Shown: positions 6,637 through 48,524, counted from the first letter of the stretch. The stretch: 64,000 bases of DNA from Escherichia coli (GCF_044324875.1 NZ_CP172185.1), one strand, 5' to 3'. Program-made: numbers and translations. Notes: generated by a model not told the origin, from the letters alone.

Positions 6637-6838
6637 CGAAATAATCTGGCAGCTATAAACGTTTATTTTTTTACTGTTTGTGATCTGCTTTCCGAACTTA
6701 TTAAAAAGTCTCCCGCTTCACGGAGGCTTTTGTTATTGTCCTTTGTGCTTCTCGTCAGTAAATCATCAGGGATGATGTGAAGATTAAATGTAAAACAATT
6801 GTTTTGCTATAACAATAAATTAACTGGGAGGTTTTATC

Positions 6839-7753
6839 ATGATTTCTGCGGCGACACTTAATTCAGAACTCATTAATAAAATCGCGCAGGATTTTGCGCA
6901 GGCGACCAGCCTTGCGGTTGTCGTGGTCAATATTCACGGCGATGAAATTTCCGAGCTGTTTAACTTCACTCCATTTTGTCAGATGATGCGGCAACACTCT
7001 CAGCTTAGCACTCGATGTCGCATGAGCGATCGTTGTGGGGGCCTGGAAGCCTCTAAATCCGATCAGCCTTGTATTTATCGCTGTCATGCCGGATTAACCG
7101 ATTTCTCTATTCCACTGGTAATCGCCGGACATTTAGTTGGTTTTGTATTGTGCGGGCAAGTTCGTCTGCGTAATGATGATGTCGATTTGGTCGATATTCT
7201 GAATGTCGATGATTGCTGGCAGGCAGATCCCGAATTACTTAATGAATTTCGCAAAGTCCCTGAGATGGATTACTCAAGAGTTATGGCCTCTGCTGATTTG
7301 TTGAAGTTGATTGTGGAAAATTGCCTCAAAAAACAACTCAATTTTGTTGTTATTAAAGAGAACAAATTTCAGTCAGATTCGGTGCGCCAGACTCGTGCGC
7401 CTAATCCCCACGACAATAAAATGAAAAAAGCTTTACGCTATATTGATGCGCATTTATCAGACGATTTGCGTCTGGAAGATGTCGCCTCGCACGTTTATCT
7501 AAGCCCTTATTATTTCAGCAAGTTATTTAAGAAATACCATGGGATTGGGTTTAATGCGTGGGTAAACCAACAACGGATGGCCAGCGCTCGTGAGTTACTG
7601 TGCCATAGTGACTGGAGCATCGCCAGCATTGCGCGTAATTTAGGTTTTTCGCAAACCAGTTATTTTTGCAAAGTTTTCCGTCAGACTTATCAGGTTACGC
7701 CGCAGGTGTATCGGCAGCAAGTGAATGAAAATGCGGCGATGGAAACGGTATAG
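6839..7753 (+). CDS. pocR: AraC-family regulator of pdu/cob
   Basis: 304 aa ORF with a C-terminal AraC-type HTH domain (…YLSPYYFSKLFKKYHGIGFNAW…); position between pduF and the cob leader. Confidence 0.85.
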   Translation: MISAATLNSELINKIAQDFAQATSLAVVVVNIHGDEISELFNFTPFCQMMRQHSQLSTRCRMSDRCGGLEASKSDQPCIYRCHAGLTDFSIPLVIAGHLVGFVLCGQVRLRNDDVDLVDILNVDDCWQADPELLNEFRKVPEMDYSRVMASADLLKLIVENCLKKQLNFVVIKENKFQSDSVRQTRAPNPHDNKMKKALRYIDAHLSDDLRLEDVASHVYLSPYYFSKLFKKYHGIGFNAWVNQQRMASARELLCHSDWSIASIARNLGFSQTSYFCKVFRQTYQVTPQVYRQQVNENAAMETV

Positions 7754-7859
7754 AGTAAATGCCAAAAAAAAGGAAGGTTTAAATAAACGCTGGAATGAAT
7801 AATTAACGTTATTTACGTGTTATGGGAAAAGTGAAATCAGCTCATAACATACGCTGACA

Positions 7860-8060
7860 GGTGTGGCACATTTGTGCCAGGGAAGAGGGTGAAAATCCCT
7901 CGCAGCCCCCGCTGCTGTAATGCTGACAAACCCGAAAATGCCACTGATCGCGAGATTGGGAAGGTCGGGTGAGGATGACGCTAAGCCAGAAGACCAGTCT
8001 GTCAGTCAATACCAACAACTTCGGTGGGAAGTGGGTTGCCCGGAAGCGTCCGGTAGAGTA
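7860..8060 (+). ncRNA. Cobalamin (B12) riboswitch-like leader
   Basis: Contains GTGCCAGGGAAGAGGGTGAAAATCCC, GCAGCCCCCGCTGCTGTAA, GCCACTG and a B12-box-like AAGCCAGAAGACCAGTC, all resembling conserved cobalamin-riboswitch segments as in the btuB and cob leaders. Confidence 0.7.
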
Positions 8061-12234: not shown

Positions 12235-12310
12235 TGGCTCCTCTGACTGGACTCGAACCAGTGACATACGGATTAACAGTCCGCCGTTCTACCGACTGAA
12301 CTACAGAGGA
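12235..12310 (-). tRNA. asnV: tRNA-Asn (anticodon GUU)
   Basis: Reverse complement reads TCCTCTGTAGTTCAGTCGGTAGAACGGCGGACTGTTAATCCG...GGTTCGAGTCCAGTCAGAGGAGCCA, the E. coli tRNA-Asn sequence; gene name assigned by position. Confidence 0.95.
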
Positions 12311-12635
12311 ATCGTGTGAACGGGGCGCATATTAATGGCAGTGCATGGTGATGTCAAAGGGTGAAATGCATTTTTTTGTTTGTTTGCTGTCAATTTCAAC
12401 AAAGTGGTGAGCTTTCAATCTTATTGGTAATGAACCATCGTGGTGCATACCCTCCTTTTATGGGGCAGGGGAACGCGACAGCTGATAAAAAGAGCCAATG
12501 ACGAACCTATCATAATCTCTTATTTGACAGTTGGTTAGCTTGTACATCAACGCCAAAATAAAACTGGCAAGCATCTTGCAATCTGGTTGTAAGTAATGGC
12601 GGCACTTGGGCCGATTCTTATAAACCGGAGGCAAC

Positions 12636-13553
12636 ATGAACTTCAGACGCCTGAAATACTTCGTAAAAATTGTAGATATTGGTAGCCTGACCCAGGCTGC
12701 TGAAGTATTGCATATCGCACAACCAGCGCTCAGTCAGCAGGTTGCCACACTGGAAGGTGAGTTAAATCAACAGCTTTTGATTCGCACAAAACGGGGCGTT
12801 ACGCCAACTGACGCCGGAAAAATTCTCTATACCCATGCGCGGGCCATTTTACGTCAGTGTGAGCAGGCCCAACTGGCGGTGCATAACGTTGGTCAGGCAT
12901 TATCGGGGCAAGTCTCGATTGGCTTTGCGCCAGGAACCGCTGCGTCATCCATCACCATGCCCTTATTACAGGCGGTTCGCGCTGAATTCCCGGAGGTCGT
13001 TATCTATCTTCATGAAAATAGCGGTGCAGTGCTTAACGAAAAACTGATAAATCACCAACTCGATATGGCGGTGATTTATGAGCATTCCCCTGTGGCTGGT
13101 GTATCCAGTCAGGCTTTACTGAAAGAAGATCTTTTTCTGGTAGGAACTCAAGATTGCCCGGGGCAAAGCGTTGATGTTAATGCTATTGCGCAAATGAACC
13201 TCTTTCTCCCCAGTGATTACAGTGCTATTAGACTTCGTGTTGATGAGGCTTTTTCCCTACGGCGACTCACGGCAAAAGTCATTGGTGAAATTGAGTCTAT
13301 TGCCACGCTTACCGCAGCGATTGCCAGCGGCATGGGCGTTGCAGTATTACCCGAATCGGCCGCGCGTTCGTTATGTGGCGCAGTAAATGGGTGGATGTCA
13401 CGCATTACCACTCCTTCCATGAGTCTCTCTTTGTCATTAAATTTACCCGCCAGAGCGAACTTATCGCCACAGGCACAGGCAGTGAAAGAGTTGTTAATGT
13501 CAGTGATGAGTTCTCCAGTGATGGAAAAAAGGCAGTGGCAATTGGTGAGCTAA
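12636..13553 (+). CDS. nac: LysR-family nitrogen assimilation control protein
   Basis: 305 aa ORF with N-terminal LysR HTH (MNFRRLKYFVKIVDIGSLTQAAEVLHIAQPALSQQV...). Confidence 0.9.
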   Translation: MNFRRLKYFVKIVDIGSLTQAAEVLHIAQPALSQQVATLEGELNQQLLIRTKRGVTPTDAGKILYTHARAILRQCEQAQLAVHNVGQALSGQVSIGFAPGTAASSITMPLLQAVRAEFPEVVIYLHENSGAVLNEKLINHQLDMAVIYEHSPVAGVSSQALLKEDLFLVGTQDCPGQSVDVNAIAQMNLFLPSDYSAIRLRVDEAFSLRRLTAKVIGEIESIATLTAAIASGMGVAVLPESAARSLCGAVNGWMSRITTPSMSLSLSLNLPARANLSPQAQAVKELLMSVMSSPVMEKRQWQLVS

Positions 13554-13654
13554 GCGTTATATCGGGATGGAATAAGATGCGGGTTTTTATTATTTGTTAT
13601 GCCGGGCATTAGACTTTAACAATAACGGGATATCTGAACTGCCCGGAGTTTACC

Positions 13655-14605
13655 GTGAATTTCCAACAACTAAAGATAATCCGCGAGGCTGCACGTCAGG
13701 ATTACAACCTGACAGAGGTTGCGAATATGCTTTTTACCTCACAGTCAGGCGTCAGCCGTCACATTCGGGAACTGGAGGATGAACTTGGCATCGAAATATT
13801 TGTTCGACGAGGTAAGCGACTGCTGGGCATGACTGAACCGGGCAAAGCATTACTGGTCATTGCAGAACGCATTCTTAATGAAGCCAGTAATGTTCGTCGG
13901 CTTGCAGACCTGTTTACCAACGATACGTCTGGCGTTCTCACTATTGCAACGACGCATACTCAGGCACGTTATAGCTTGCCTGAGGTCATTAAAGCTTTTC
14001 GCGAACTTTTCCCGGAGGTTCGGCTGGAGCTAATCCAGGGTACGCCACAGGAAATTGCGACGTTGTTGCAAAATGGCGAAGCTGATATTGGTATCGCCAG
14101 CGAGCGTTTGAGTAATGACCCGCAGCTCGTCGCCTTCCCGTGGTTTCGTTGGCACCATAGTTTGCTTGTTCCACTCGATCATCCCTTGACGCAAATTACA
14201 CCGTTGACGCTGGAATCAATAGTGAAGTGGCCGTTAATCACTTACCGACAGGGGATTACGGGGCGCTCACGTATTGATGACGCATTTGCCCGCAAAGGTT
14301 TGCTGGCAGATATTGTATTAAGTGCGCAGGATTCTGATGTCATTAAAACCTATGTTGCTCTTGGGCTGGGGATTGGATTAGTTGCCGAACAATCCAGCGG
14401 CGAACAAGAGGAAGAGAATTTAATCCGTCTGGATACGCGGCATCTTTTCGATGCCAATACTGTATGGTTGGGACTGAAGCGAGGGCAACTTCAACGTAAC
14501 TATGTCTGGCGCTTTCTGGAACTTTGTAATGCAGGACTGTCAGTTGAGGATATCAAGCGCCAGGTGATGGAGAACAGTGAAGAGGAAATTGATTATCAGA
14601 TATAG
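13655..14605 (+). CDS. cbl: LysR-family regulator Cbl
   Basis: 316 aa ORF MNFQQLKIIREAARQDYNLTEVANMLFTSQSGVSRHIRELE...; CysB-like, adjacent to nac as in E. coli. Confidence 0.9.
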   Translation: MNFQQLKIIREAARQDYNLTEVANMLFTSQSGVSRHIRELEDELGIEIFVRRGKRLLGMTEPGKALLVIAERILNEASNVRRLADLFTNDTSGVLTIATTHTQARYSLPEVIKAFRELFPEVRLELIQGTPQEIATLLQNGEADIGIASERLSNDPQLVAFPWFRWHHSLLVPLDHPLTQITPLTLESIVKWPLITYRQGITGRSRIDDAFARKGLLADIVLSAQDSDVIKTYVALGLGIGLVAEQSSGEQEEENLIRLDTRHLFDANTVWLGLKRGQLQRNYVWRFLELCNAGLSVEDIKRQVMENSEEEIDYQI

Positions 14606-14606
14606 C

Positions 14607-14634
14607 AAAAAGCCCGCTATAAAAGCGGGCTTTT
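14607..14634. terminator. Intrinsic terminator hairpin after cbl
   Basis: AAAAAGCCCGC-TATAAA-GCGGGCTTTT immediately after the cbl stop. Confidence 0.6.
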
Positions 14635-14642
14635 CAGAAATT

Positions 14643-14718
14643 TGGCTCCTCTGACTGGACTCGAACCAGTGACATACGGATTAACAGTCCGCCGTTCTAC
14701 CGACTGAACTACAGAGGA
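14643..14718 (-). tRNA. asnU: tRNA-Asn (anticodon GUU)
   Basis: Same 76-nt tRNA-Asn sequence on the minus strand. Confidence 0.95.
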
Positions 14719-14878
14719 ATCGCTGTTGAGGCACATCTTAACGGCGAAAAATCTTTTGTCAAACCCGATTTTTAAATTTCCCAACTGTTTGCCGTTTCTA
14801 TCAACAGTTTGTTGCATTTGCAGACAATTTGTTGGCGAAAATCTTTGCAGCTTTGCTGATTCTCCCTCATTATTTGAA

Positions 14879-16366
14879 ATGTGGTTTCACTTTCTGCAAT
14901 TAAGGTCGGCTTTGAATATCTCCTCTGCTTTACGCCAGGTTGTTCACGGCACTCGCTGGCACGCCAAACGCAAGAGTTACAAAGTGTTGTTCTGGCGCGA
15001 GATAACCCCGCTTGCTGTTCCTATCTTCATGGAGAACGCCTGTGTCCTGTTGATGGGTGTCCTGAGCACTTTTCTGGTCAGCTGGCTGGGAAAAGATGCG
15101 ATGGCCGGCGTGGGATTGGCGGACAGCTTCAATATGGTCATTATGGCATTTTTTGCGGCTATCGATCTTGGTACCACTGTCGTTGTGGCATTTAGTCTCG
15201 GTAAGCGGGATCGACGACGAGCGAGGGTGGCGACGCGGCAGTCATTGGTGATCATGACGTTGTTTGCCGTGCTGTTGGCAACGCTTATTCATCATTTTGG
15301 CGAACAAATTATTGATTTCGTTGCGGGTGATGCCACGACAGAAGTTAAAGCACTGGCGTTGACTTATCTGGAGCTGACGGTACTCAGTTATCCAGCAGCT
15401 GCCATCACTTTGATTGGTAGTGGTGCACTTCGTGGTGCAGGGAATACGAAAATACCGCTACTGATTAACGGTAGCCTGAATATTCTTAATATTATTATTA
15501 GCGGCATATTGATTTACGGCCTTTTCTCCTGGCCGGGACTGGGATTTGTCGGGGCTGGGTTGGGTTTAACCATTTCTCGTTATATTGGCGCAGTGGCAAT
15601 TTTGTGGGTGCTGGCGATTGGTTTTAATCCTGCGCTAAGGATTTCGTTAAAGAGCTATTTTAAACCGCTGAATTTTAGCATTATCTGGGAAGTCATGGGG
15701 ATTGGTATTCCAGCAAGTGTCGAATCAGTATTATTTACCAGTGGTCGGTTATTAACCCAAATGTTCGTTGCCGGGATGGGGACCAGTGTTATTGCCGGAA
15801 ATTTTATCGCGTTTTCAATTGCGGCTCTTATCAACTTACCCGGAAGTGCGCTCGGCTCTGCTTCTACGATCATTACAGGCCGAAGGTTGGGAGTAGGGCA
15901 GATAGCGCAAGCAGAGATTCAGTTGCGGCATGTGTTCTGGCTGTCCACTCTTGGATTAACGGCCATCGCCTGGCTAACGGCTCCCTTTGCCGGGGTTATG
16001 GCATCGTTTTACACCCAGGATCCACAGGTTAAACATGTCGTTGTGATTCTGATTTGGCTAAATGCTTTATTTATGCCTATTTGGTCTGCCTCATGGGTGC
16101 TACCCGCTGGATTTAAGGGTGCTCGCGATGCACGTTACGCCATGTGGGTTTCTATGTTGAGCATGTGGGGTTGCCGGGTTGTAGTCGGTTATGTGCTGGG
16201 AATCATGCTTGGCTGGGGTGTGGTTGGTGTCTGGATGGGAATGTTTGCCGACTGGGCTGTGCGGGCCGTGCTGTTTTACTGGCGAATGGTTACTGGACGT
16301 TGGCTGTGGAAATATCCTCGACCTGAGCCGCAAAAGTGTGAAAAAAAGCCAGTTGTGTCGGAATAA
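14879..16366 (+). CDS. yeeO: MATE-family efflux transporter
   Basis: ORF track frame 14726..16366; start moved to an internal Met to give the roughly 495 aa I recall for YeeO; many transmembrane segments. Confidence 0.85.
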   Translation: MWFHFLQLRSALNISSALRQVVHGTRWHAKRKSYKVLFWREITPLAVPIFMENACVLLMGVLSTFLVSWLGKDAMAGVGLADSFNMVIMAFFAAIDLGTTVVVAFSLGKRDRRRARVATRQSLVIMTLFAVLLATLIHHFGEQIIDFVAGDATTEVKALALTYLELTVLSYPAAAITLIGSGALRGAGNTKIPLLINGSLNILNIIISGILIYGLFSWPGLGFVGAGLGLTISRYIGAVAILWVLAIGFNPALRISLKSYFKPLNFSIIWEVMGIGIPASVESVLFTSGRLLTQMFVAGMGTSVIAGNFIAFSIAALINLPGSALGSASTIITGRRLGVGQIAQAEIQLRHVFWLSTLGLTAIAWLTAPFAGVMASFYTQDPQVKHVVVILIWLNALFMPIWSASWVLPAGFKGARDARYAMWVSMLSMWGCRVVVGYVLGIMLGWGVVGVWMGMFADWAVRAVLFYWRMVTGRWLWKYPRPEPQKCEKKPVVSE

Positions 16367-16466
16367 ACGACAAAGTGCAGATTATTTCAGCAAACGATTT
16401 CAAATTTAAAAAACAGGCTTTGACATTGTGGATGAGCGTCGCTAATATTCGCCTCGTTCTCACGAT

Positions 16467-16542
16467 TCCTCTGTAGTTCAGTCGGTAGAACGGCGGACTG
16501 TTAATCCGTATGTCACTGGTTCGAGTCCAGTCAGAGGAGCCA
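16467..16542 (+). tRNA. asnW: tRNA-Asn (anticodon GUU)
   Basis: Plus-strand TCCTCTGTAGTTCAGTCGGTAGAACGGCGGACTGTTAATCCGTATGTCACTGGTTCGAGTCCAGTCAGAGGAGCCA. Confidence 0.95.
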
Positions 16543-31801: not shown

Positions 31802-31877
31802 TGGCTCCTCTGACTGGACTCGAACCAGTGACATACGGATTAACAGTCCGCCGTTCTACCGACTGAACTACAGAGGA
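31802..31877 (-). tRNA. asnT: tRNA-Asn (anticodon GUU)
   Basis: Fourth copy of the identical 76-nt tRNA-Asn sequence, minus strand. Confidence 0.95.
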
Positions 31878-31977
31878 ATCGTGTGAACGGGGCGCATATT
31901 ACTTAGCGGTACCTTGTCTGTCAACACTAAATTTCATAAGTCATTTCAATTGGTTAATTAATCTGCAAAGTTGTTAA

Positions 31978-32775
31978 TTAATGAACATTCGTCGTCGAAA
32001 ACGAGTCTGTATCATTAGCGTGATGCAGTCTCTGCAAAGGATCTTGTTGATAAAATTGGCAGAAACGTTGCCACAATGAAGGGAAACGAGGAGCAAAAAG
32101 TTCTGGGGCGCTAAAGAAATATTCAGAAAGTACGGCAAAACATTCAGCAGGATCACTGGCAGCATAAGCATCAATGCTCGCCGCATTCACGCCAACTAAT
32201 TCGATTTCTTCCTGAATGTTGTTCATTGCAGCATGAAGATCGTGTTCCCAGCCAGCAACCTCACGCAACGGAATAAAGGGAACTCCGCTGGCGCGATCGC
32301 CGTTACGGGTGTCCAGCTTATGAGCGACTTCATGAATAATCAGGTTAAAACCAGAAGCATCAAAAGAATCTTGTATATCCAACCAGTTCAAAACGATAGG
32401 CCCTTGCTGCCAGCTCTGACCTGACTGAACAATACGTTGGTTATGCACCAGACCGATATCGTCTTCCCATTCATCATCGACCACAAATGGCGCAGGATAA
32501 ATTAAGACTTCATGAAAACCATCCAGCCATTCCAGTCCTAACTCCAGAACGGGAAGGCAAAATAGAAGTGCTATCCGGCAGCTTCTTAATGAATCCAGTT
32601 CAAAGCCCTGTAAAGGAACAAGCCGCTTTTGCTGTAAAAAACGTTCGGCAAGAGTGACTAATTTGCTTTGTTCCTGTTCCGTCAGACACGTTAAAAGGGG
32701 GATCGATAGTGCTTCCTGCCAGGGAAGGGCAGTTTGATGTGCTGATTCTTGTACTTTCCAGGGCCACTTAATCAT
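31978..32775 (-). CDS. mtfA: Zinc-dependent peptidase MtfA (Mlc titration factor A)
   Basis: ORF track frame 31978..32814; start at internal MIKWPWK...; HEXXH zinc motif ([10 protein letters not shown]). Confidence 0.9.
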
Positions 32776-32867
32776 CGTTTTGCTCGCAAACTCGTCACTT
32801 GAACAAAATTGCACGGACAGGGACTGTTAAAATGCCAAATTTCCTGGCATCATGGCAACCATCTGAA

Positions 32868-32957
32868 CGGAGAGATGCCGGAGCGGCTGAACGGACCGGT
32901 CTCGAAAACCGGAGTGGGGGCAACTCCACCGGGGGTTCAAATCCCCCTCTCTCCGCC
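32868..32957 (+). tRNA. serU: tRNA-Ser (anticodon CGA)
   Basis: GGAGAGATGCCGGAGCGGCTGAACGGACCGGTCTCGAAAACCGGAGTGGGGGCAACTCCACCGGGGGTTCAAATCCCCCTCTCTCCGCCA: long-variable-arm class II tRNA with anticodon CGA. Confidence 0.9.
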
Positions 32958-33002
32958 AAAATTCAATCACTTATACATCATTAAGTCAGTGACAAAAATC
33001 AC

Positions 33003-34297: not shown

Positions 34298-36751
34298 TTA
34301 AAAATCAGCCTGATTCGGGATCAGTTTTTGTATAGTGGCTGTTACGTATTTTGCCTGGTGAAGAGCGTCATCCAGAGCATTATGGCGCACGCCTTCGAAT
34401 GGAATTACGCTTCTGGCATTGAAGTCTGTGATTTTCCCCATCTCAACGATTGTGCGTACATCACGATCGTTGCTGTAATGCCACGGACAGGGGATGTCCA
34501 GACGTTCGTATGAGGTGCGCAAAATTGCGTTATCGAACGTTGCGCCATTACCCCACACCTGAACGAATTTTTCATCAGAGTGTTCATTGACGAATTGCCG
34601 AAAACGCAAAAGGGCATCTTTCATTTTTACCTGGTCAGTTAAAATGGCAGCTCTGGCTTCGCTGGACTGCTTCAGCCACCATTCGATGGTGCCACCATCA
34701 GGAACAGCCCCTGTATTCATTGCGTCAGTCAGGCTGATAACGATATAAAATACCGGCCCGATTTCCCCTGTTTCCGGGTCGAAGAAAACCGCACCAATAA
34801 CTACTATGGGTGCATTGGTGTTGGCTCCCATTGTTTCAAGGTCGACTGACAGGTGATTCCATACTCTGCTGGTGGATGTGATTTCACGATGACCGTTCAT
34901 CTTAATTAAGGAATTTTCTGTTTCGCCAGTTTTATTATCGCTGGCGTGGCCCTGAGCGCCGCCAGTGTTCTCCTTGTGCGGATGCTCAGTGCCTTCCGTT
35001 TCCTCCGGATTTTTTTCCTGAGATTCAGCCTGATTTTCTCCATTGAATGTTTCCTGGTATGTTGCGTCACCCATTACTGAGCCACAATCAGGGCAGTTGC
35101 CGCCGCTGGTCTGACCGCAGGCGGTGCAGACTTTTTCCGGTTCCTGTTGCGCTACTGGCTCAGGTTGTTTCGTTTCTGGCTCGTTTTGTAACGCATTTTG
35201 GCTGTTTTGTTCCGCTTTCTGGTCGTTCTGTTCCGTTTCTTGCTGGTTCTGGTTCACTGAATCGCGAGTCTGGACTCCCTTAACCCATTTCAGATCATTC
35301 GGGTCGCTAATCCCTTCAACGAACTCACCACGCGAGGCCGCCAGTAATTTGTCTGCATCGACAGGATTTTTGGGCGGAATGTTTTTCCTAGCTTCATGGA
35401 GTTCTGCCCGCAGTTTCTGATATTTCGCATCAACAGAATTCACCTGCGGCTGAGCATCCAGCGGCTGCGTGTCCGGATGATGTTCAGTTGTATCCGGTTC
35501 CACTGTTTCAGTCGTTGGCTGTTCATCTGCCATTGCGCCAGACGGTTGCGGTTTTTCTTCATCATCCTGTTTTCCTTCTTCTGTTACACGCTGCGGCATT
35601 GGGGCAGAGGAACGACCGCAGGCAATATCCACGATTTCCGGATCAGGGTTGGCATGATCGGTTTCGGTCAGCACTTTATTCAAGTATTCGGTGACGCGCT
35701 GGGGCATAGCCTCTATACCAACCGGTGCTTCTTTCACGGAGGCAACCACGATGGCGCGGGAATAATCCATCCCGCCTGGCATGTTCAGAAAAGCCTTAAG
35801 GAAGACGGAGAAACAGGGATCATTTTCTGCGATAATTTCGTTAACACGTCTGGTATGTGAAGGATGCATGTTGTAAATATCCACATCCATCGAACGAGCC
35901 AGTTTTCCTGTAGCAACATCGAATGCCATTGACGCATTATCATGCACAAAACCTTCGCCGCGATCGGTAAGAATACCGCCGCCAGCGTTAGCGCCGGATG
36001 GTGTGCGACTGATGCGAGAAACACGATTTCCTTTCATCCACTCTTTTGTAAGCAGACCACGATCAGTGTAGTCAGCGTCCAGGTATGCTTCGATGAAGGA
36101 GGTCATCAGTCCCAGGTCTGAATTTACGGGGGCGGGAAAAACTTTGTCAGTGTCCCGCACCAGTTTGTACAAATCCCGAATCTCCAGCGGTTCGAGTTGC
36201 GCTGCTTTATTTGAGATGGCCAGCGCGGTAACGGCGGGAAGTTTTTCTTCCTGTGCGTTATGTAATGAGCGCAGTTCATCCCGCGAAACGTGCGTTACTG
36301 GTTTTTCGCCGCCGTGTTGCGCCAGCCAGCGAACAGGCAGAATCTGACCTGAAACCGGCAGAAGCATATTCTCCTCAATCTCAGTCATGTCTTCGCCATT
36401 AACATTGGTGTTGTCAGTGCTGGCTGGTTTGTCCTGCGCGGATGGCGGAGGCGCGATAAATATCATTGTGATGCCATCTTCGCCGCCTTTTTCATACCGG
36501 TTACAGAATTCGGTATCAAACACGCCTTCCGGTGGAAGGTCATCAACAACGGGCAAATGGACGCGAACAGGTTTTTTAAAGTCGTCTTCATCATAATCGT
36601 TATCATCCATTGCGGTAATGCAGCGGGAGATGGCAACAGATAATTTTTTTGCTGTAGTCCAGTAAAAACCACCTTTAATCCCAAGGCGTTTTCTGACTTT
36701 GTCATTTTTAGCTTCGCAATATAGCGCAAAAGTTTCTTTATCAGTGCTCAT
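34298..36751 (-). CDS. Large early protein with internal Cys4 zinc-ribbon and C-terminal DnaQ-like (DEDDh) 3'-5' exonuclease domain
   Basis: 817 aa; CTACGQ...CPDCG motif; C-terminus has DLETMG ... HNALDDA spacing like DEDDh exonucleases; occupies the recE-like position but I do not see a RecE/lambda-Exo type nuclease motif. Confidence 0.55.
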
Positions 36752-36870
36752 TGATAAACCTCATTGCTGTTTTAAGGTTGTGCGAATCCCTGCCATTGCT
36801 GGCATATAAGAATCGACCCTTATGTATTTATTAAGCTGAATGTCGTATTGGGTCAGTTATTTATTACAGC

Positions 36871-37092
36871 TCACCATGCCACCGCCTTTACAGGTAAACC
36901 ATCACGACCGAGGAAGACTTTAATCATGCGGTCAGTAATGCATGTTTTTGTAGTGAAATCACGGATATAAAGTTTTTGCTTTTCGATATTGTTTGCCGAG
37001 GCGATATATGTCCGGCCTTCGTAAATAACGTAATCGCCGGGAGTGACGCACTGGCGTGGTATTTCATCGGTTCCGAAGTGATGAGCAATCAT
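36871..37092 (-). CDS. Hypothetical small early-left protein
   Basis: 73 aa ORF with AAGGAG ribosome-binding site 7 nt upstream of the ATG. Confidence 0.45.
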
Positions 37093-37137
37093 AATAATCT
37101 CCTTAATAATTTGTGATATGAAGGAAATTCCAGAAAA

Positions 37138-37692
37138 CTATTTAATACTCAGCAACTGCTCGACGGTCATATTTTTAATTGCGCCCCGGTTTATGAGAGT
37201 CCATCCCTGCTTTTCCAGATAAAAACGGAAAGTATCCAGAGTACAGACCAGTGCGCCATCAGGAACTGTTTCGGTGAATTTGATGTAGCCGTGTTCGTCG
37301 AAGCGGATAACCAGGGTGCGGCCATCACCCGGGATTATTTTGTCAGCGGGTGTGGTGTTATTCCGGCGCAGTTCTTCCTCCATGCGGTCGAACTCGGCAA
37401 TGTAGGCTTCCTTGAATGCAGCGGCCTTTTTGCCCGTGAAGCCCATCACAAGGAAAACGAAGCCGTTTTTGGTGATTTGGTACATTGGGAGTTTGCGTCC
37501 TGTTGAGTCGGTGTATTCGCTCGCCTTAAAATTAAGGGCAGTGAACTCAGCGGAGCAGTCCAGTAATTTTATTTTTTGGATAACATTGTCGTGACGCTTG
37601 CCAAAGAATTCCGCGATCGCAACAGACGTAGTGACAGCGCGACCATTTTCAATGGTTACGTCAGGGTGAGAAAGGGTAAGGGTAGTAGCCAT
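37138..37692 (-). CDS. Rha-family phage regulatory protein (antirepressor-like)
   Basis: ORF track frame 37138..37989; likely start at internal MATTLTLSHPDV...; Rha-like motif ...VTTSVAIAEFFGKRHDNVIQKIKLL.... Confidence 0.65.
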   Translation of the reverse strand: MATTLTLSHPDVTIENGRAVTTSVAIAEFFGKRHDNVIQKIKLLDCSAEFTALNFKASEYTDSTGRKLPMYQITKNGFVFLVMGFTGKKAAAFKEAYIAEFDRMEEELRRNNTTPADKIIPGDGRTLVIRFDEHGYIKFTETVPDGALVCTLDTFRFYLEKQGWTLINRGAIKNMTVEQLLSIK

Positions 37693-37861
37693 AATGGCAG
37701 CCTCCACGTTGAGTATTGATAACTCACCACCGAGGCTTTCCACGACCATAATGGTGGTGAGACGTACAGGGGTGGAAATACCGGTCAACGTAGAACCCGG
37801 CCAGCCTTGCGGCTGCCCTGCACGCCCCACCATAATCTGAATGTGGCTGTGCTTCACGCAT

Positions 37862-37886
37862 AAAAAAACCGCCTGAGCGCGGTTGT
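37862..37886 (-). terminator. Intrinsic terminator on the minus strand upstream of rha
   Basis: Minus strand reads AACCGCGCTCAGGCGGTT followed by a U-run (plus strand TAAAAAAACCGCCTGAGCGCGGTT). Confidence 0.45.
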
Positions 37887-38501
37887 GCGCTACGTTTGAC
37901 TTCGGGTTTCCACGCCCGGCACCCGGTTTATGAGGTGCAGGTGCACTATAATTCCACCCGTACTGGTTTTCAATAGCTACATTCAACATTTTCTCTTACC
38001 TTTCATCACCGAAGTGAACTTTGTTGATGCGGTGCCAGGTGCCTCCAGGTGACGTTAACCAGTTAACAATTAACGCCGGATACAGAGAATCCACCCATAA
38101 CTCTGTTTTTGGTTTTAACTGTTCCACGTGCGATCAGCCGCATTCACCACATCACAAAATTCACTTTAAAAAGGGCGGCAGAGCAGTCACGGAGTAAAAC
38201 TGATACCGCAAAACGTCACCAGAAAATTGATAACAGATGGCGTTGCAGCGGGGTTGTCACTCAGGCGCATGGTCAACCTGACAACCCGGTGTCCTCAAGG
38301 GGAAGGGAACCCCGCCATGCTTACCGCCGCGCCATTTCGCGGAGTGCCACAACCGGAAGCGGACGGTCGACGAAAATTTAACGACAGGCTATATATGAAC
38401 CAGCTACCTCGCCGTGCGCTTTCGTGTTGTGTGCCTGCTTTTAACCACGTCAGGCGAGGTGGTATCCTCTGAGGGGTCTGTTACCCGAGAGGAAATTGGT
38501 T

Positions 38502-38702
38502 ATGAATACAATCAAGTTTTCTTGCCCAGAATGTGGTGGCGAAGTCTTCGACACATCCTTTAAGCCGCAGGGCTCTGACAGTTTCGCGGGAGCCATCTGC
38601 AAAAATTGTGGTCACCTTGTAACTGAAGATGAGTCCTCGCAATTCGATGAGGAAATCGTTGACAATATCTTCGGTGTAATCACCGGAGCCTTTCTGAAGT
38701 AA
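38502..38702 (+). CDS. Small zinc-ribbon protein (CxxC...CxxC)
   Basis: MNTIKFSCPECGG...CKNCGH...; GAGG 8 nt upstream of the ATG; opposite orientation to neighbouring early genes. Confidence 0.5.
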   Translation: MNTIKFSCPECGGEVFDTSFKPQGSDSFAGAICKNCGHLVTEDESSQFDEEIVDNIFGVITGAFLK

Positions 38703-39068
38703 AGGCACATACCGCTTAGTTACCGCTCTGATAATTCTTACCTGCCCGGCAATGGCGCTGATGTCAATATAAAGCGCCATTGCTGCTTCTTTGCCGATCC
38801 CGGGATGCCTTCCATTCTGATGTTTGACTTCGCCCACTGAGAAATCCTCTGTTTCCCCTTAACGCCGGGGTAGCGGAACAAAAACCTGCTGCATAGTTAA
38901 AGTTAAACCCTGCCGTCATGTTCATACGCCTCGGGCTGGCTACTTAACCCCTGACCACTGCCTGGTAACTCGAAGTATTGCCCTGCGTTCTGTGGGGCGG
39001 GGTGGGTTGGTGAAATTAGTTTATACAAAAATAAACTTAACAGTCAATCTGCAACTTAACTAAACAGT

Positions 39069-39098
39069 AAAAAATAACACTCTCTTTGAGAGTGTTTA
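39069..39098 (-). terminator. Intrinsic terminator downstream of the RelE/ParE-like toxin gene
   Basis: AACACTCTC-TTT-GAGAGTGTT perfect 9-bp stem, followed on the minus strand by a U-run. Confidence 0.5.
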
Positions 39099-39121
39099 AG
39101 GCTGTGTTGATGGGCAGAGGG

Positions 39122-39406
39122 TTATGTTACAGGGAACTGTCGGCGGGTATGGACTACGTTTACTATTTCAATACTTGAGGTTGTCACGCGGTACAGAATT
39201 ATATAATTGGGGTGAGCCACAATCTCACGTAAGCCTGGCACTCTGTCGCTTGGGGGGTATAAATACGGATGTTCGGATAATGGCAGCACACACCCCCTTA
39301 ATCGCTGCCATAAGCGTTCTGCCGCATCTATGTCGAAACGAGCAATGTAACTAGTTATATCATCCAGGTCGGTATCTGCGCTTTCAGGCCATAACACAGG
39401 TAACAT
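39122..39406 (-). CDS. RelE/ParE-family type II toxin
   Basis: 94 aa ORF abutting the stop of an upstream small ORF; typical size and basic C-terminal region for RelE/ParE-family toxins. Confidence 0.7.
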   Translation of the reverse strand: MLPVLWPESADTDLDDITSYIARFDIDAAERLWQRLRGCVLPLSEHPYLYPPSDRVPGLREIVAHPNYIILYRVTTSSIEIVNVVHTRRQFPVT

Positions 39407-39598
39407 TTACTGTTCACTCCGTTCCTTGCGTATTTTAGCAAAGCGTTCTGCCATTCTGCGCTCAACTTCGTCATGGGGAATTGCTGGGCGCGGATCTGCA
39501 AGGCTTGCAGCTACTTTGGCTCGCAGCCATTCGTTGTAACTGTTTTCTTGTTCAATAGTTTCAAACTCAGAAACCATTGGTGAAAGGGCCGTATTCAT
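39407..39598 (-). CDS. Putative antitoxin partner of the RelE/ParE-like toxin
   Basis: Start at internal MNTALSPMVSEF... with GGAGG 7 nt upstream; 63 aa acidic protein directly upstream of and abutting the toxin gene. Confidence 0.55.
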   Translation of the reverse strand: MNTALSPMVSEFETIEQENSYNEWLRAKVAASLADPRPAIPHDEVERRMAERFAKIRKERSEQ

Positions 39599-39627
39599 GG
39601 CACACCTCCGTCTGTGTATGGTGGTCA

Positions 39628-40026
39628 TTATGCCCGATGCCCTTTCCGGGCAGCGAGCCATCTTTCAATTGTGCGATCCATTAACTCTTTTTTGTCTTTC
39701 ATCTCCTGAAGCATTTGCTCTTGATCTTCCTCTGGAAATGCCTCAAATGTTTGAAGTAGCTCCTTTTGCCTAGGAGTTATTTTTATTATATCTTGTATTC
39801 TGTCATTTTTTTCTTCATTTAACGGTAAGAAGAACCAATACTGAGGATATCCTGTTGCTTCAGATAGTTTATCTAGATTAGCTGCTGTAGGGCTTGAGAT
39901 ACCACAAACCCATCTTTGAACGGATTGTTGAGTAATGCCAATTCTGCGCGCAAGTTCTGCCTGGCTCCAGCCTGTTACCAACAAAAGCTTCCTAATTCTA
40001 AGAGCACTAATTTCGAGTACACCCAT
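39628..40026 (-). CDS. XRE-family HTH regulator (repressor-like, paralog A)
   Basis: ORF track frame 39628..40101; HTH segment SQAELARRIGITQQSVQRW; C-terminal 45 aa paralogous to the neighbouring gene; start codon uncertain. Confidence 0.6.
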   Translation of the reverse strand: MGVLEISALRIRKLLLVTGWSQAELARRIGITQQSVQRWVCGISSPTAANLDKLSEATGYPQYWFFLPLNEEKNDRIQDIIKITPRQKELLQTFEAFPEEDQEQMLQEMKDKKELMDRTIERWLAARKGHRA

Positions 40027-40060
40027 CTGATATATCTTGTTTTTAAGAGTATGCTTCCCA

Positions 40061-40432
40061 TCAGGCGCGGCGACCTTGCTGCGCCAACCAACGTGCGACA
40101 AAATCTTCCATTGCTTCTTTTTTGTTTCTTAGTTCTTTTATGATCTCTTGCTGTTCATTATCAGGAAATGCACTAAATATTTGTAGCAATTCCAGCTGGT
40201 TAGGGGTTAATGCTATAGCTCTTGATGATGGAGACTCTGTTATGTCTTCTGGCTCAATATCAAGATAACCCCCTGGCATCCCATATGTTTGTTCAATACG
40301 TCTAGCTGCTTTTTCGCCAAACGTAGCCTTACCGCTCATTAACTGAGATAAGTAACTTTTCTCTTTGGGTGGCAAAGTTCTGTCTTTGAACCACTCTTTG
40401 AGGCGTAAACGCCGAATCTCTCTTGTTTCCAT
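40061..40432 (-). CDS. HTH regulator (CI-like repressor lacking a peptidase domain, paralog B)
   Basis: 123 aa; C-terminal segment LTPNQLELLQIFSAFPDNEQQEIIKELRNKKEAMEDFVARWLAQ resembles that of paralog A; divergent from the Cro-like gene. Confidence 0.65.
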   Translation of the reverse strand: METREIRRLRLKEWFKDRTLPPKEKSYLSQLMSGKATFGEKAARRIEQTYGMPGGYLDIEPEDITESPSSRAIALTPNQLELLQIFSAFPDNEQQEIIKELRNKKEAMEDFVARWLAQQGRRA

Positions 40433-40535
40433 ACATGCATTATCTTTAGTAATTGCGAAATAAGCAAATACTTGACTGGTTTATTTAGTTACGTATAAAC
40501 TTTTGCTTGCACTAAAGTATGTTGAGATCGAAATC

Positions 40536-40823
40536 ATGACTCTAAAGGAATTCATCAAATCATTAAAAACTGGAGAAGCAAAAAAATTTGCTGCCAACCT
40601 TGGTGTGTCTCCGTCCTTCTTGTCTCAAATGGCATCTGGCAGTTCACCAGTGTCTCCTGTTCGTGCGTTAATGATAGAAGCAGAAACTGCAGGGCATGTT
40701 ACAAGAAGAGAGTTGAGGCCGAATGACTGGGATCTTATATGGCCGGAATACACCGGAATTACGCCCCCTTCAAGTCATAAATATGAGCTTAACACCAAAA
40801 AAGTTGATGGGGTTGATTCATGA
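40536..40823 (+). CDS. Cro/YdaS-like small DNA-binding protein
   Basis: Start at internal MTLKEFIKSLKTGEAKKFAANLGVSPSFLSQM...; divergent from the repressor genes. Confidence 0.55.
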   Translation: MTLKEFIKSLKTGEAKKFAANLGVSPSFLSQMASGSSPVSPVRALMIEAETAGHVTRRELRPNDWDLIWPEYTGITPPSSHKYELNTKKVDGVDS

Positions 40824-41245
40824 AAATCAAACATGAGCACATCCGCATGGCGATGAATGCCTGGGCGCATCCGGACGGCGAAAAAGTACCGGCTGCGAAA
40901 ATTACCAAAGCGTATTTCGAACTGGGTATGACGTTCCCGGAACTGTACGACGACAGCCACCCTGAAGCCCTGGCGCGTAATACCCAGAAAATTTTCCGCT
41001 GGGTAGAGAAAGACACCCCTGATGCAGTTGAAAAAATTCAGGCGTTGTTACCAGCGATCGAAAAGGCAATGCCACCTTTGCTGGTGGCCAGAATGCGCAG
41101 CCACAGTTCAGCTTATTTTCGGGAGCTGGTGGAGATGCGGGAACGACTGGTGAGAGACGCTGATGATTTTGTCGCGGTGGCAATAGCTGGCTTCAACCAG
41201 ATCAACCGTGGTGGCCCGGCCGGAAATGCTGTGGCTGTGCATTGA
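40820..41245 (+). CDS. YdaT-like / CII-position early regulator
   Basis: 141 aa ORF overlapping the Cro-like stop; gene order resembles Rac ydaS-ydaT-ydaU-ydaV. Confidence 0.4.
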   Translation: MKIKHEHIRMAMNAWAHPDGEKVPAAKITKAYFELGMTFPELYDDSHPEALARNTQKIFRWVEKDTPDAVEKIQALLPAIEKAMPPLLVARMRSHSSAYFRELVEMRERLVRDADDFVAVAIAGFNQINRGGPAGNAVAVH

Positions 41246-41316
41246 TCGGCAATATTCATACCGGATCTCTTTCGGTAATACGTGATTAAAAAGATTCGGT
41301 ATCTGAAGAGGTTAGT

Positions 41317-42387
41317 ATGGCTAATGCCTGGCTCAGATTATGGCATGACATGCCAAATGACCCCAAGTGGCGAACCATTGCCCGGGTGTCAGGTCAGCCA
41401 ATTGCAACAGTGATGGCTGTGTATATCCACCTCCTGGTGAGCGCGTCACGAAATGTCACGCGAGGTCACATTGATGTCACGACCGAGGATTTGGCAAGTG
41501 CGCTCGATGTGACAGAAGAGATGATTGATTCAATTTTGCAGACGATGCAGGGGCGGGTACTTGATGGTGATTTAATCACTGGATGGGAAAAACGCCAGGT
41601 GCTGAAAGAGGACAACGGCAATATTTCGCAAACCGCAAAATCTCCTGCAGAGCGCAAGAGGGCGCAGCGAGAGAGGGAAAGAAAGCGGGAACAAAATGGC
41701 GATTGTCACGGCGCGTCACGAAATGTCACGCACATGTCACGACGAGTCACGACAGATAAAGATACAGATAAAGATACAGATCAAGAAGATCAAAACACTA
41801 TGGTCCATGGCGTGAAAAACGCCACGAACCAGGCTGGGGATGTTCAGACCGTCAATCCTGATCAGCCCGCAGGCACGACACCGGAAGCCGATTCAGCGTA
41901 TGCGCTGAAAGCCGATTCGGGCGCTGTGCAGCAGGCGATGACCGCAGGGTCGGAGCAATCACACCAACTGCAGCAGCCTGAAGCCGATTCCGCGATTCAG
42001 CGGGAAGCCGATCGGGTAGTCCCGGAAAACACCGGGCAGCCTGTGGGACGAGTGGATTATCCGGATGTGTTCGAACAGGTCTGGCGGGAATACCCGTTGC
42101 GTGCCGGGGCAAACCCGAAGAAATCCGCTTTCAGTGCCTGGAAGGCCAGATTACGCGAGGGGGTGCCACCGCAGGTCATGCTGGATGGTGTGAGGCGTTA
42201 CGCGAGGTACCTGGCGGCGACCGGGAAAGCGGGAACGGAATTTGTTCAGCGGGCGACAACGTTTTTTGGACCTGACCGGAATTTTGAAAACCCCTGGTTG
42301 CTCCCGACTGGCGGGACGAACAACCAGCGTTGTGTGAATCATATTTCCGAACCGGATACCGAAATTCCACCAGGTTTCAGGGGGTGA
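41317..42387 (+). CDS. Replication initiation protein (YdaU-like) with internal origin iterons
   Basis: 356 aa; N-terminal MANAWLRLWHDMPNDPKWRTIARVSGQP...; the gene body contains two clusters of GTCACG repeats. Confidence 0.6.
   Translation: MANAWLRLWHDMPNDPKWRTIARVSGQPIATVMAVYIHLLVSASRNVTRGHIDVTTEDLASALDVTEEMIDSILQTMQGRVLDGDLITGWEKRQVLKEDNGNISQTAKSPAERKRAQRERERKREQNGDCHGASRNVTHMSRRVTTDKDTDKDTDQEDQNTMVHGVKNATNQAGDVQTVNPDQPAGTTPEADSAYALKADSGAVQQAMTAGSEQSHQLQQPEADSAIQREADRVVPENTGQPVGRVDYPDVFEQVWREYPLRAGANPKKSAFSAWKARLREGVPPQVMLDGVRRYARYLAATGKAGTEFVQRATTFFGPDRNFENPWLLPTGGTNNQRCVNHISEPDTEIPPGFRG
41444..41752. repeat. Candidate replication-origin iterons (GTCACG repeats at about 10-bp spacing, two clusters)
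   Basis: Cluster 1 at about 41444..41481 (four GTCAC copies); cluster 2 at about 41705..41752 (five GTCACG copies at 10-11 bp spacing); followed by A-rich GATAAAGATACAGATAAAGATACAGATCAAGAAGATCAAAAC. Confidence 0.5.
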
Positions 42388-45215: not shown

Positions 45216-45451
45216 TTTTATGGATCACCTTTCTGATTGATTTCATATTGGCGAGGTGACGGGAGTTAAGTAGAATTGCTGCGGGTGCTTGAGGCTATCT
45301 GCCTCGGGCATGAACACCAACGGCAGATAGAGAAAAGCCCCAGTTAACATTATGCGTCCTGCAAGACGCTTAACATTAATCTGAGGCAGAATCTATGTCT
45401 AGCAAATGTAGGTTAGCCTCTTACGTGCCGAAAGGCAAGGAGAAGCAGGCT

Positions 45452-45607
45452 ATGAAGCAGCAAAAGGCGATGTTAGTCGCCCTGATCGTCATCTGTATTA
45501 CCGTCATTGTGACGGCACTGGTAACGAGGAAAGACCTCTGCGAGGTACGAATCCGAACCGGCCAGACGGAGGTCGCTGTCTTCACAGCTTACGAACCTGA
45601 GGAGTAA
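45452..45607 (+). CDS. hok: Hok/Gef-family type I toxin
   Basis: MKQQKAMLVALIVICITVIVTALVTRKDLCEVRIRTGQTEVAVFTAYEPEE, 51 aa, near-identical to chromosomal Hok/Gef peptides; the ORF track frame extends in-frame upstream to 45395. Confidence 0.8.
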   Translation: MKQQKAMLVALIVICITVIVTALVTRKDLCEVRIRTGQTEVAVFTAYEPEE

Positions 45608-48158: not shown

Positions 48159-48524
48159 ATGACTGAAAGCATAGAATTTGTTTTGCCTTACCCGCCAACG
48201 GTGAACACCTACTGGCGACGTCGTGGCAGCACATATTTTGTATCAAAAGCCGGTGAGCGTTATCGCCGTGATGTGGCGCTCATTGTTCGCCAGCAGCGGC
48301 TGAAGTTAAACCTGTCCGGACGGCTGGCGATAAAGATTATTGCAGAGCCACCGGATAAACGTCGTCGTGACCTGGACAATATCCTGAAAGCACCACTGGA
48401 TGCGCTGACGCATGCCGGACTTCTCATAGACGACGAGCAGTTTGATGAAATCAATATTGTGCGCGGTCAGCGCGTTCCTGGGGGGCGGCTGGGCGTGAAG
48501 ATTTACAAAATTGAGAGTGAGTGA
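48159..48524 (+). CDS. rusA: Holliday junction resolvase RusA
   Basis: 121 aa MTESIEFVLPYPPTVNTYW... with the RusA acidic motif RRRDLDN. Confidence 0.85.
   Translation: MTESIEFVLPYPPTVNTYWRRRGSTYFVSKAGERYRRDVALIVRQQRLKLNLSGRLAIKIIAEPPDKRRRDLDNILKAPLDALTHAGLLIDDEQFDEINIVRGQRVPGGRLGVKIYKIESE

Follow-up and report, generated by a model that had tools for sequence, protein, structure and literature searches.

The hairpin and adjoining U-run at 37862–37886 on the minus strand of the window (the whole 64,000-nucleotide (nt) stretch of Escherichia coli DNA that we analysed) appear to form a genuine Rho-independent terminator, belonging to an IsrK/seqA-type leader RNA within a C4/CI immunity cassette that controls rha. 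We put the probability of this reading at about 0.8, on the basis of sequence matches and homology to characterised systems. Read along the minus strand, the layout runs from a predicted promoter through the a1/b1 leader, the terminator, C4 RNA and the target sites a2 and b2 to rha. To judge from its sequence, the element is an ordinary copy of the already described IsrK/t1-type switch and not a new one. A preliminary description of this DNA had noted a hairpin plus U-run on the minus strand upstream of rha, and that observation is borne out by the sequence itself, by the fold (z of −3.5), by the match to isrK and by conservation in related loci.

The minus-strand sequence from 37886 to 37862 reads ACAACCGCGCUCAGGCGGUUUUUUU. 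It contains a stem–loop (37884–37867) with a 6-base-pair (bp) stem, AACCGC/GCGGUU, in which four pairs are G–C, and a 6-nt loop, GCUCAG. Seven U residues follow (37868–37862), and two of them contribute to the stem by pairing with its basal AA. The canonical features of an intrinsic terminator are thus all present: a G+C-rich stem, a short loop and a U-tract abutting the stem. Folded alone, the 25-nt hairpin has a predicted free energy of −9.3 kcal/mol with z = −3.54, and none of 200 dinucleotide shuffles was equally stable; in absolute terms the hairpin is predicted to be weak (about −9 kcal/mol, 6 bp). On the plus strand, A7 precedes the hairpin and GUGCG follows it, and as no U-run is present there the hairpin can terminate minus-strand transcription only. 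A terminator motif scan was not significant by itself, finding 9 sites in 6 kb against 6.6 ± 3.0 expected, so the case for more than chance stands on the isrK match and on the recurrence of a hairpin and T-run, with co-varying stem arms, at the equivalent position in most related loci.

The hairpin coincides with the 3′ end of a known RNA family. The Rfam isrK model (RF01394) matches 77 nt of the minus strand (37938–37862) with 67.1 bits against a gathering threshold of 50 (E = 3.5e-12 for the whole 64-kb window). The match is full length (model positions 1–77 of 77), and the hairpin and U-run make up its last 22–23 positions or so (model 56–77). The architecture of the family is present in order, with SL1 at 37938–37919, SL2 at 37918–37903, a linker, and the terminator at 37884–37862. 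Immediately upstream is a sigma-70-like promoter-like site (37973–37945, minus strand), comprising TTGAAA (37973–37968), a 17-nt spacer and TATAGT (37950–37945); 10 of its 12 bases agree with the consensus, and it ends 6 nt before the first isrK base. The leader transcript would, on this prediction, start at about 37938. This start falls inside the interval 37900–38100, from which the preliminary description had proposed, as an alternative, a small RNA ending at the hairpin; the isrK match and the promoter-like site uphold that proposal, by homology to characterised systems.

At gathering thresholds, Rfam finds a tandem of three RNAs on the minus strand: DicF (38224–38173, 67 bits), isrK and C4. 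The c4-a1b1 family (RF03163) stayed below its threshold in a permissive scan of the window, with 25.9 bits against 46.7 at 37951–37899; the same model scores 48.1 bits in Gifsy-1 and 44.1 bits in P4. The sub-threshold match covers the 5′ half of the isrK match, a region claimed by the overlapping isrK model. The isrK-type leader therefore amounts to a C4-system a1/b1 target region to which a terminator is joined.

The antisense RNA of the cassette, of the C4/CI/STnc1160 type, occupies 37837–37750 (RF01695, 78.6 bits against a threshold of 45), beginning 25 nt downstream of the terminator on the same strand, and has a predicted fold of −47.3 kcal/mol (z = −5.0). Its closing helix resembles an acceptor stem and is followed by CCA, which, from what is known of P1 C4, we take to fit a substrate of RNase P. 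The target sites, all on the minus strand, are named after the P1 annotation and were assigned by hand in the window. The segment a′ (UUUCCAC, 37778–37772), in the single-stranded 3′ part of C4, is complementary to a1 (GUGGAAA, 37913–37907) in the loop of SL2, with a predicted duplex of −16.1 kcal/mol, and has a second target in a2 (GUGGAAA, 37743–37737), 6 nt past C4. The segment b′ (GUUCUACGUUGA, 37796–37785), from the loop of C4 hairpin 2, complements b1 (UCAAACGUAG, 37899–37890) in the leader's linker apart from one bulged A; the duplex predicted by RNAduplex has −13.6 kcal/mol. With b2 (UCAACGUGGAG, 37712–37701), b′ is predicted to form an 11-bp helix (−18.1 kcal/mol) that takes in the rha Shine–Dalgarno sequence GGAGG (37705–37701), which b2 overlaps. 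The arrangement found, with two target sites upstream and two downstream of C4 and b2 lying over the ribosome-binding site of the first gene, is that of a C4 system. GGAGG stands 8 nt upstream of the internal ATG at 37692, the start of a short form of rha (37692–37138, minus strand; 184 aa, beginning MATTLTLSHP). The Pfam Phage_pRha domain (108 bits, residues 120–205 of the long open reading frame (ORF) described below) begins 20 residues past this ATG.

Several candidates were set aside in assigning these features. Unconstrained RNAduplex predictions for the whole of C4 against the whole leader or the whole rha leader gave long, uninformative pairings, and duplexes of loop against target were used instead. 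An 8-nt complement in the promoter spacer of window-type loci, GGGTGGAA, was picked automatically as a1 and rejected, and such loci were left out of one analysis. A 45-aa ORF (37861–37724), considered as the counterpart of Gifsy-1 orf45, was rejected, being in a different frame.

To compare loci, viral contigs were scanned with one C4 hairpin-1 motif, yielding 99 distinct regions, a few of which are false positives. A strict search, with loops of at most 8 nt, finds a hairpin and T-run on the same strand within 300 nt upstream of C4 in 80 of the 99, against 22 for the opposite strand and 15 for the downstream side. The loop limit overlooked many loci with loops of 10–14 nt, P1 among them; with longer loops permitted, 90 of the 99 have such a hairpin, and most of the remainder are artefacts of the scan. 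In most loci the T-run begins about 40–60 nt ahead of the C4 core; in P4-like loci the distance is 80–90 or about 130 nt. Just upstream of the leader, 34 of 87 loci have a promoter-like site that agrees with the consensus at 9 or more of 12 positions, compared with 3 of 87 control windows.

The stems differ in sequence between loci (AACCGC/GCGGUU in the window, ACACGC/GCGUGU in Gifsy-1, GACGCG/CGCGUC in P4), and 19 distinct terminator 3′ arms occur among the loci tested. Pairing is nevertheless kept: of 76 loci, 61 have a 5-bp Watson–Crick stem abutting the T-run. When, anchored on the T-run, each 3′ arm is paired with the upstream sequence of another locus, the number falls to 16.6 ± 3.6 (at most 28 in 300 trials). 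In window-type stems the last two pairs use bases of the U-run. A MAFFT alignment of 47 leaders was not used for covariation, because it places the terminator 5′ arms in different columns where loop lengths differ. The target sites recur as well, with an exact complement of a′ of at least 7 nt upstream of C4 in 88 of 99 loci (16.2 with swapped partners, maximum 25) and downstream of it in 89 (9.6, maximum 18). Recurrence and arm covariation together make the hairpin a conserved part of the cassette, and a terminator between the leader target sites and C4 is close to universal among the C4 loci sampled here by retrieval with a single motif.

The leader also contains a competing hairpin, which we denote hairpin A (CGUAGCGC-ACAACC-GCGCU..GCG, 37894–37870, minus strand), sharing bases with both b1 and the terminator 5′ arm. 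Its predicted energy is −8.1 kcal/mol, against −8.7 kcal/mol for the terminator. The minimum free energy fold of the 77-nt RNA contains hairpin A and not the terminator, and this RNA as a whole is not unusually stable (z = −0.72). For the window, the terminator is predicted to form with a probability of 0.31 when the RNA is free, 0.92 when b1 is masked and 0.77 when the linker is shuffled, and 10% of linker shuffles reach a probability as low as that of the native sequence. A comparable b1 site could be located in each of 72 loci. Among these, the terminator probability is below 0.5 in 26, all of which are rescued by masking, and the terminator wins anyway in 46; native linkers give lower terminator probabilities than shuffled ones in 45 of the 72 (Wilcoxon p = 0.003). 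In P1, a hairpin GCGG-ACAA-CCGC stands at the place equivalent to hairpin A. That hairpin A acts as an antiterminator, relieved when C4 pairs at b1, is only partly supported by these folding predictions and by analogy.

The terminator lies upstream of the internal rha start at 37692 but inside a longer, in-frame ORF starting at 37989, with C4 in between, which refines the placement given in the preliminary description. Upstream of the ATG at 37692, the rha frame continues without a stop for 99 codons, as far as an ATG at 37989; the resulting ash-rha ORF (37989–37138, minus strand) encodes 283 aa. Its ATG is upstream of the −35 element of the leader promoter (37973), and the ORF spans the leader, the terminator (its codons 36–43) and C4. 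In a 98%-identical E. coli locus in RefSeq, PGAP annotates a 283-aa Rha protein without RNA features. The Pfam family Phage_ASH matches residues 14–108, which are the translation of the leader and C4, with 49.6–53.5 bits (threshold 26); the long ORF of P4 scores 82.2. By BLASTP the long ORFs of the window and P4 match with E = 2e-16, and they align as far as MATTLT(L/P)SHP, after which Rha follows in the window and Kil in P4.

The downstream protein starts with MAT.. in 31 distinct loci, P4 and the window included, which we refer to as the nested-ORF clade. Here the frame of the gene is open past the terminator in 30 of 31 loci and past the approximate transcription start in 29 of 31, the other frames giving 0 and 3, and an upstream ATG is present in 29 of the 31. 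Among the remaining 29 loci, which include Gifsy-1, the three frames are alike in openness (11, 9 and 9). The frame through the C4 region has no excess of variation at third codon positions (variable columns 31:36:33), whereas the downstream genes show the usual excess; with this codon-position signal absent, it is solely the openness of the frame and the case of P4 that point to translation of the long ORF. Variation spread so evenly fits the remark of the Gifsy-1 authors that orf45 is conserved in nucleotides and not in amino acids (PMC4825925). A frame kept open without visible amino-acid constraint would fit a need for ribosome passage. The possibility that the long ORF and its Phage_ASH match are an artefact of translated RNA genes was rejected on the precedent of P4 eta and the clade-wide open frame. 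The TAA (37998–37996) of a 43-aa ORF stands 6 nt before the ATG at 37989, a spacing that would allow translational coupling.

Work on homologous loci suggests how these parts might operate. In Gifsy-1, short IsrK has its 3′ end at its own Rho-independent terminator, and a subset of transcripts reads through to give an isrK-orf45-anrP mRNA (Hershko-Shalev et al. 2016, PMC4825925). Transcription of anrP depends entirely on the isrK promoter, with 280 Miller units in its presence and 3 in its absence, and processing of the read-through RNA yields a further RNA, STnc1160, about 80 nt in length (PMC4825925). Translation of the read-through mRNA is shut off because the middle of IsrK pairs with about 30 nt of the orf45 region, and short IsrK supplied in trans relieves this block and activates the mRNA (PMC4825925). 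The same authors regard IsrK as structurally homologous to P4 seqA and suggest that STnc1160 may act in a CI-like way, possibly modulating termination at the IsrK terminator (PMC4825925). Barquist et al. (2013) name an "IsrK-C4 immunity system", with IsrK corresponding to seqA and C4 to CI (PMC3632133); a 2025 review still treats IsrK and c4 as separate items. For P4, a 2023 paper places the CI RNA inside eta, a gene of the Bro network, and describes a constitutive promoter inside eta whose transcript is quickly terminated via CI/seqA interactions (PMC10111431). According to the same paper, Kil is a truncated Eta made on occasional read-through, and full-length Eta comes only from an upstream late promoter, translation of eta preventing termination (PMC10111431).

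By analogy with Gifsy-1 and P4, leader transcripts starting near 37938 would be untranslated, and many of them would stop at the U-run to give a stable 77-nt IsrK-like RNA. The fraction reading through would supply both C4, by processing, and rha mRNA, and C4 could then pair with a2 and b2 and block translation of rha. Because the short RNA carries the leader's target sites, we propose that it competes for C4 or a C4 segment and so relieves the block. C4 at b1 may also free the terminator 5′ arm from hairpin A and thereby raise termination, as the partial folding support and an analogy with P4 t1 suggest; C4 would in that case limit its own synthesis. Transcripts of the upstream early-left region would include the ATG at 37989, and ribosomes moving across codons 36–43 would, on the pattern of eta and kil in P4, block formation of the hairpin, so that such transcripts would, we propose, escape control by the terminator. 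Translation of the long ORF from upstream transcripts thus probably overrides the terminator.

More tentatively, the terminator could be a riboregulated attenuator in a complete P4-type switch by which a lambdoid prophage gates ash-rha, kil and the exonuclease gene, termination being turned on by C4 and off by ribosomes, with cross-talk to satellites possible. The a′/a1/a2 sequences (UUUCCAC/GUGGAAA) are identical to those of several P4-like satellites in our sample (L011, L015, L021 and L101), and through this shared a-site sequence the cassette might sense satellites or be immune to them. Cross-talk of this kind was speculated on by Barquist et al. (2013) (PMC3632133).

The preliminary description had also held that rha expression probably needs antitermination or a promoter just downstream of the hairpin. 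Passage through the terminator is what homology to Gifsy-1 and P4 points to, and this part of the claim stands. The downstream promoter does not, a motif scan of the minus strand between 37862 and 37692 having found none, nor does antitermination of the classical N/Q type, to which there was no pointer at the locus. The two alternatives that had been offered, a barrier ahead of rha and the end of a small RNA, are supported, by analogy, as holding at once, and each seems right in kind.

Other accounts of the hairpin must be weighed against this evidence. It is located 290 nt past DicF, in the same orientation and ahead of rha, kil and exo, and any transcript from upstream must pass it; its chief role might be to end the upstream early-left unit (DicF and a dicB remnant) and so to shield rha, kil and the exonuclease gene from transcription coming from there, with the short RNA as a by-product. 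We consider this unlikely, because a promoter-like site stands exactly one leader length upstream of the terminator, and because the terminator, a1/b1 and C4 travel together after unrelated genes, namely Q in Gifsy-1, orf88 in P4 and sim in P1. Furthermore, transcripts from upstream would translate the long ORF over the hairpin, which in P4 suppresses termination (PMC10111431). That the hairpin and T-run arose by chance and have no function, the locus being only the 5′ coding part of a 283-aa Rha, seems very improbable. A consensus scan that finds a chance number of sites (9 against 6.6) and the position of the region inside an annotated coding sequence matching Phage_ASH both speak for such an account. 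Two Rfam matches above their thresholds, arm covariation far beyond the swapped-partner controls, C4-region variation that is even over codon positions (31:36:33) and so unlike that of the downstream genes, and the experimental detection of homologous RNAs all argue against it.

The model worked out for Gifsy-1 might also apply by itself, in which case short IsrK would refold the read-through mRNA and open an ORF coupled to rha, and C4 would have no role in termination. Genetic and structural data underlie this model in Gifsy-1 (PMC4825925), and the window keeps both an AUG in the 5′ stem of C4 (37833) and complementarity between the leader and the C4 region, so we regard it as possible, if doubtful as a full account. 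The window has no separate orf45, however, its AUG at 37833 being in frame with rha, and coupling through ATGA occurs in only 3 of 65 loci; b′ pairs directly with the rha Shine–Dalgarno sequence, and the window and P4 fall together in the nested-ORF clade. The Gifsy-1 authors themselves, moreover, raise the CI-like role of STnc1160 (PMC4825925). We accordingly retain as our preferred reading the terminator of an IsrK/seqA-type leader in a C4/CI cassette. Its value is mainly for annotation: two known regulatory RNAs, together with their target sites and a terminator, are packed into the 300 bases before the internal rha start, a stretch that is thus neither spacer nor plain coding DNA; in addition, the IsrK/t1 interpretation predicts how the prophage silences a gene of an antirepressor family and which mutations would release the silencing.

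The cassette sits in mosaic surroundings: in a search with 5.5 kb, no complete E. coli genome covered at least 80% of the query, from which we infer that the surrounding prophage is a mosaic. Its promoter-like site matches PisrK of Gifsy-1, PLE of P4 and P1c4/P51b of P1 in position. In Gifsy-1, where the promoter (TTGACA-18-TATATT) stands at the same spacing, an isrK match of 79.3 bits is followed by C4 (69 bits) and then anrP, the order seen in the window. The likeness extends to STnc1160 lying immediately downstream, to an antirepressor-family gene coming next and to leader sites complementary to the C4 region. Near the Shine–Dalgarno sequence, b2 reads UCAACGU-GGAGG in the window and AUCACCG-GAGGG in Gifsy-1. 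The two have nonetheless diverged, with blastn matching only the C4 part (76.5%) and the specificity site being GUGGAAA in the window and UUGGCGU in Gifsy-1. Unlike Gifsy-1, the window has neither a separate orf45 nor an ATGA overlap, and the AUG that corresponds to the orf45 start (37833) shares the frame of rha. The genomic settings differ as well, the window cassette lying in an early-left operon after DicF and that of Gifsy-1 after the Q gene.

The immI operon of P1 and P7 (Citron and Schuster 1990; P1c4-a1 b1-c4-a2 b2-icd-ant in the annotation of NC_005856) has the same order as the window, the tandem of leader and C4 in P1 being recognised by eye. Its annotated P1c4 promoter (TTGACC-17-TATAGT) is as far from stem–loop 1 as the site in the window; a1 lies in a hairpin loop, b2 covers the icd ribosome-binding site and an antirepressor is the regulated output, again as in the window. 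A hairpin, ACCGCA-12 nt-UGCGGU, with AUUUUUG after it, stands between b1 and c4 in P1 too; it is not annotated as a terminator, and our strict scan missed it because its loop is 12 nt long. P1 differs from the window in that its first gene is icd, on which ant depends translationally, and in that no long ORF crosses C4, a stop occurring after 14 codons.

In P4, whose order within eta is PLE-seqA-t1-CI-seqC-kil (Sabbattini 1995, Forti 1999 and Briani 2000, as cited in PMC4825925 and PMC10111431), an isrK-type match of 60.8 bits is followed by C4 (75 bits), as in the window. The match to the seqA region ends with GACGCG-CCA-CGCGUC-U6. Briani et al. (2000) reportedly located a Rho-independent terminator, t1, between PLE and cI in P4, whose efficiency is said to need CI RNA and seqA and which is said to serve CI autoregulation. 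The hairpin and T-run that end the seqA match are presumably t1, and we take them to be the counterpart of the terminator in the window. The host elements differ, a lambdoid prophage in the window and a satellite in P4, as do the b′ loops and the distance from terminator to C4 core (about 130 nt in P4, about 48 nt in the window). In both, however, a long ORF begins before the internal promoter and shares the frame of the first gene downstream, and the DNA of the first 10 codons, MATTLT(L/P)SHP, together with the Shine–Dalgarno region is 89% identical; past codon 10 the reading frame continues as kil (65 aa) in P4 and as the Rha domain in the window. In its nested-ORF layout, as read from the sequences, the window is therefore nearer to P4 than to Gifsy-1.

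In the RefSeq/PGAP annotation of the homologous locus, the cassette appears as a single 283-amino acid (aa) 'Rha family' coding sequence (the long ash–rha open reading frame (ORF), 37138..37989 in the window, minus strand), and the RNA features are absent. Codons 1–99 of this ORF are the translated isrK-type leader, terminator and C4 RNA, and the Pfam Phage_ASH match falls on the same codons. Despite the openness of the ash–rha frame in 29–30 of the 31 related loci, no third-codon-position excess was found in it. A 45-aa ORF (37724..37861, minus strand) starts immediately after the U-run of the terminator; it was rejected as the counterpart of orf45 in the Salmonella prophage Gifsy-1, because its frame differs. 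The true positional equivalent of the Gifsy-1 orf45 AUG is 37831..37833 (minus strand), within the C4 5′ stem, and in the window this AUG (37833) is in frame with rha. The ATGA coupling layout of Gifsy-1 occurs in only 3 of 65 loci.

Upstream of the cassette, on the same strand, lie DicF RNA (38173..38224, 67 bits) and a 43-aa ORF (37996..38127), called in part a truncated DicB by PGAP, with its stop codon 6 nt ahead of the long ash–rha start. A match to STnc100 over 38020..38161 is below threshold (28 bits versus 47). Farther upstream, a RelE/ParE-type toxin and antitoxin pair (39122..39661, minus strand) adjoins repressor-like HTH genes (39628..40432) and is followed by a terminator-like hairpin of 9 bp (39076..39096, minus strand) and then by a promoter-like site, TTGACT-18-TAAACT (39018..39047, minus strand), a candidate early-left promoter that could feed the operon with the ash–rha cassette.

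The prophage carrying the cassette is a mosaic. Among the complete E. coli genomes in RefSeq, none covered at least 80% of the 5.5 kb at 36000..41500, and strain AR_0085 is 98% identical across 700 nt around the cassette. A sok antitoxin RNA (45283..45457, plus strand, 115 bits) places a hok/sok-type module within the same prophage. Chromosomal context is marked at 6695..8016, 12235..16542 and 31802..32958 by STnc230 sRNA, a cobalamin riboswitch, four tRNA-Asn genes and tRNA-Ser(CGA); the last of these (32869..32958) adjoins the prophage end and may be the attachment site.

The C4 a′ segment has a further 8-nt complement (GGGTGGAA) within the leader-promoter spacer, at about 37953..37960 (minus strand), and the same complement is found in three other sampled phage loci (L003, L019 and L107). 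This site would lie outside the leader transcript but inside transcripts from upstream.

In phage P1 (L125 390–415; NC_005856 about 48289–48314), the interval from b1 to c4 holds a hairpin, ACCGCA-12 nt-TGCGGT, with ATTTTTG after it; this hairpin is preceded there by a competing hairpin, GCGG-ACAA-CCGC, and is unannotated in the detailed P1 record. The window and four P4-like satellites (L011, L015, L021 and L101) have in common the a′/a-site pair UUUCCAC/GUGGAAA but have different b′ loops, so that half of the specificity determinant is common to a lambdoid prophage and satellites. The DNA around 37690..37720 (minus strand) is 89% identical over 45 nt to P4 kil (L002 801–845), a stretch that takes in the Shine–Dalgarno region together with codons 1–10 (MATTLTLSHP); beyond codon 10, the proteins encoded by P4 kil and the window's rha are unrelated, placing the boundary of the mobile RNA cassette inside the coding sequence.
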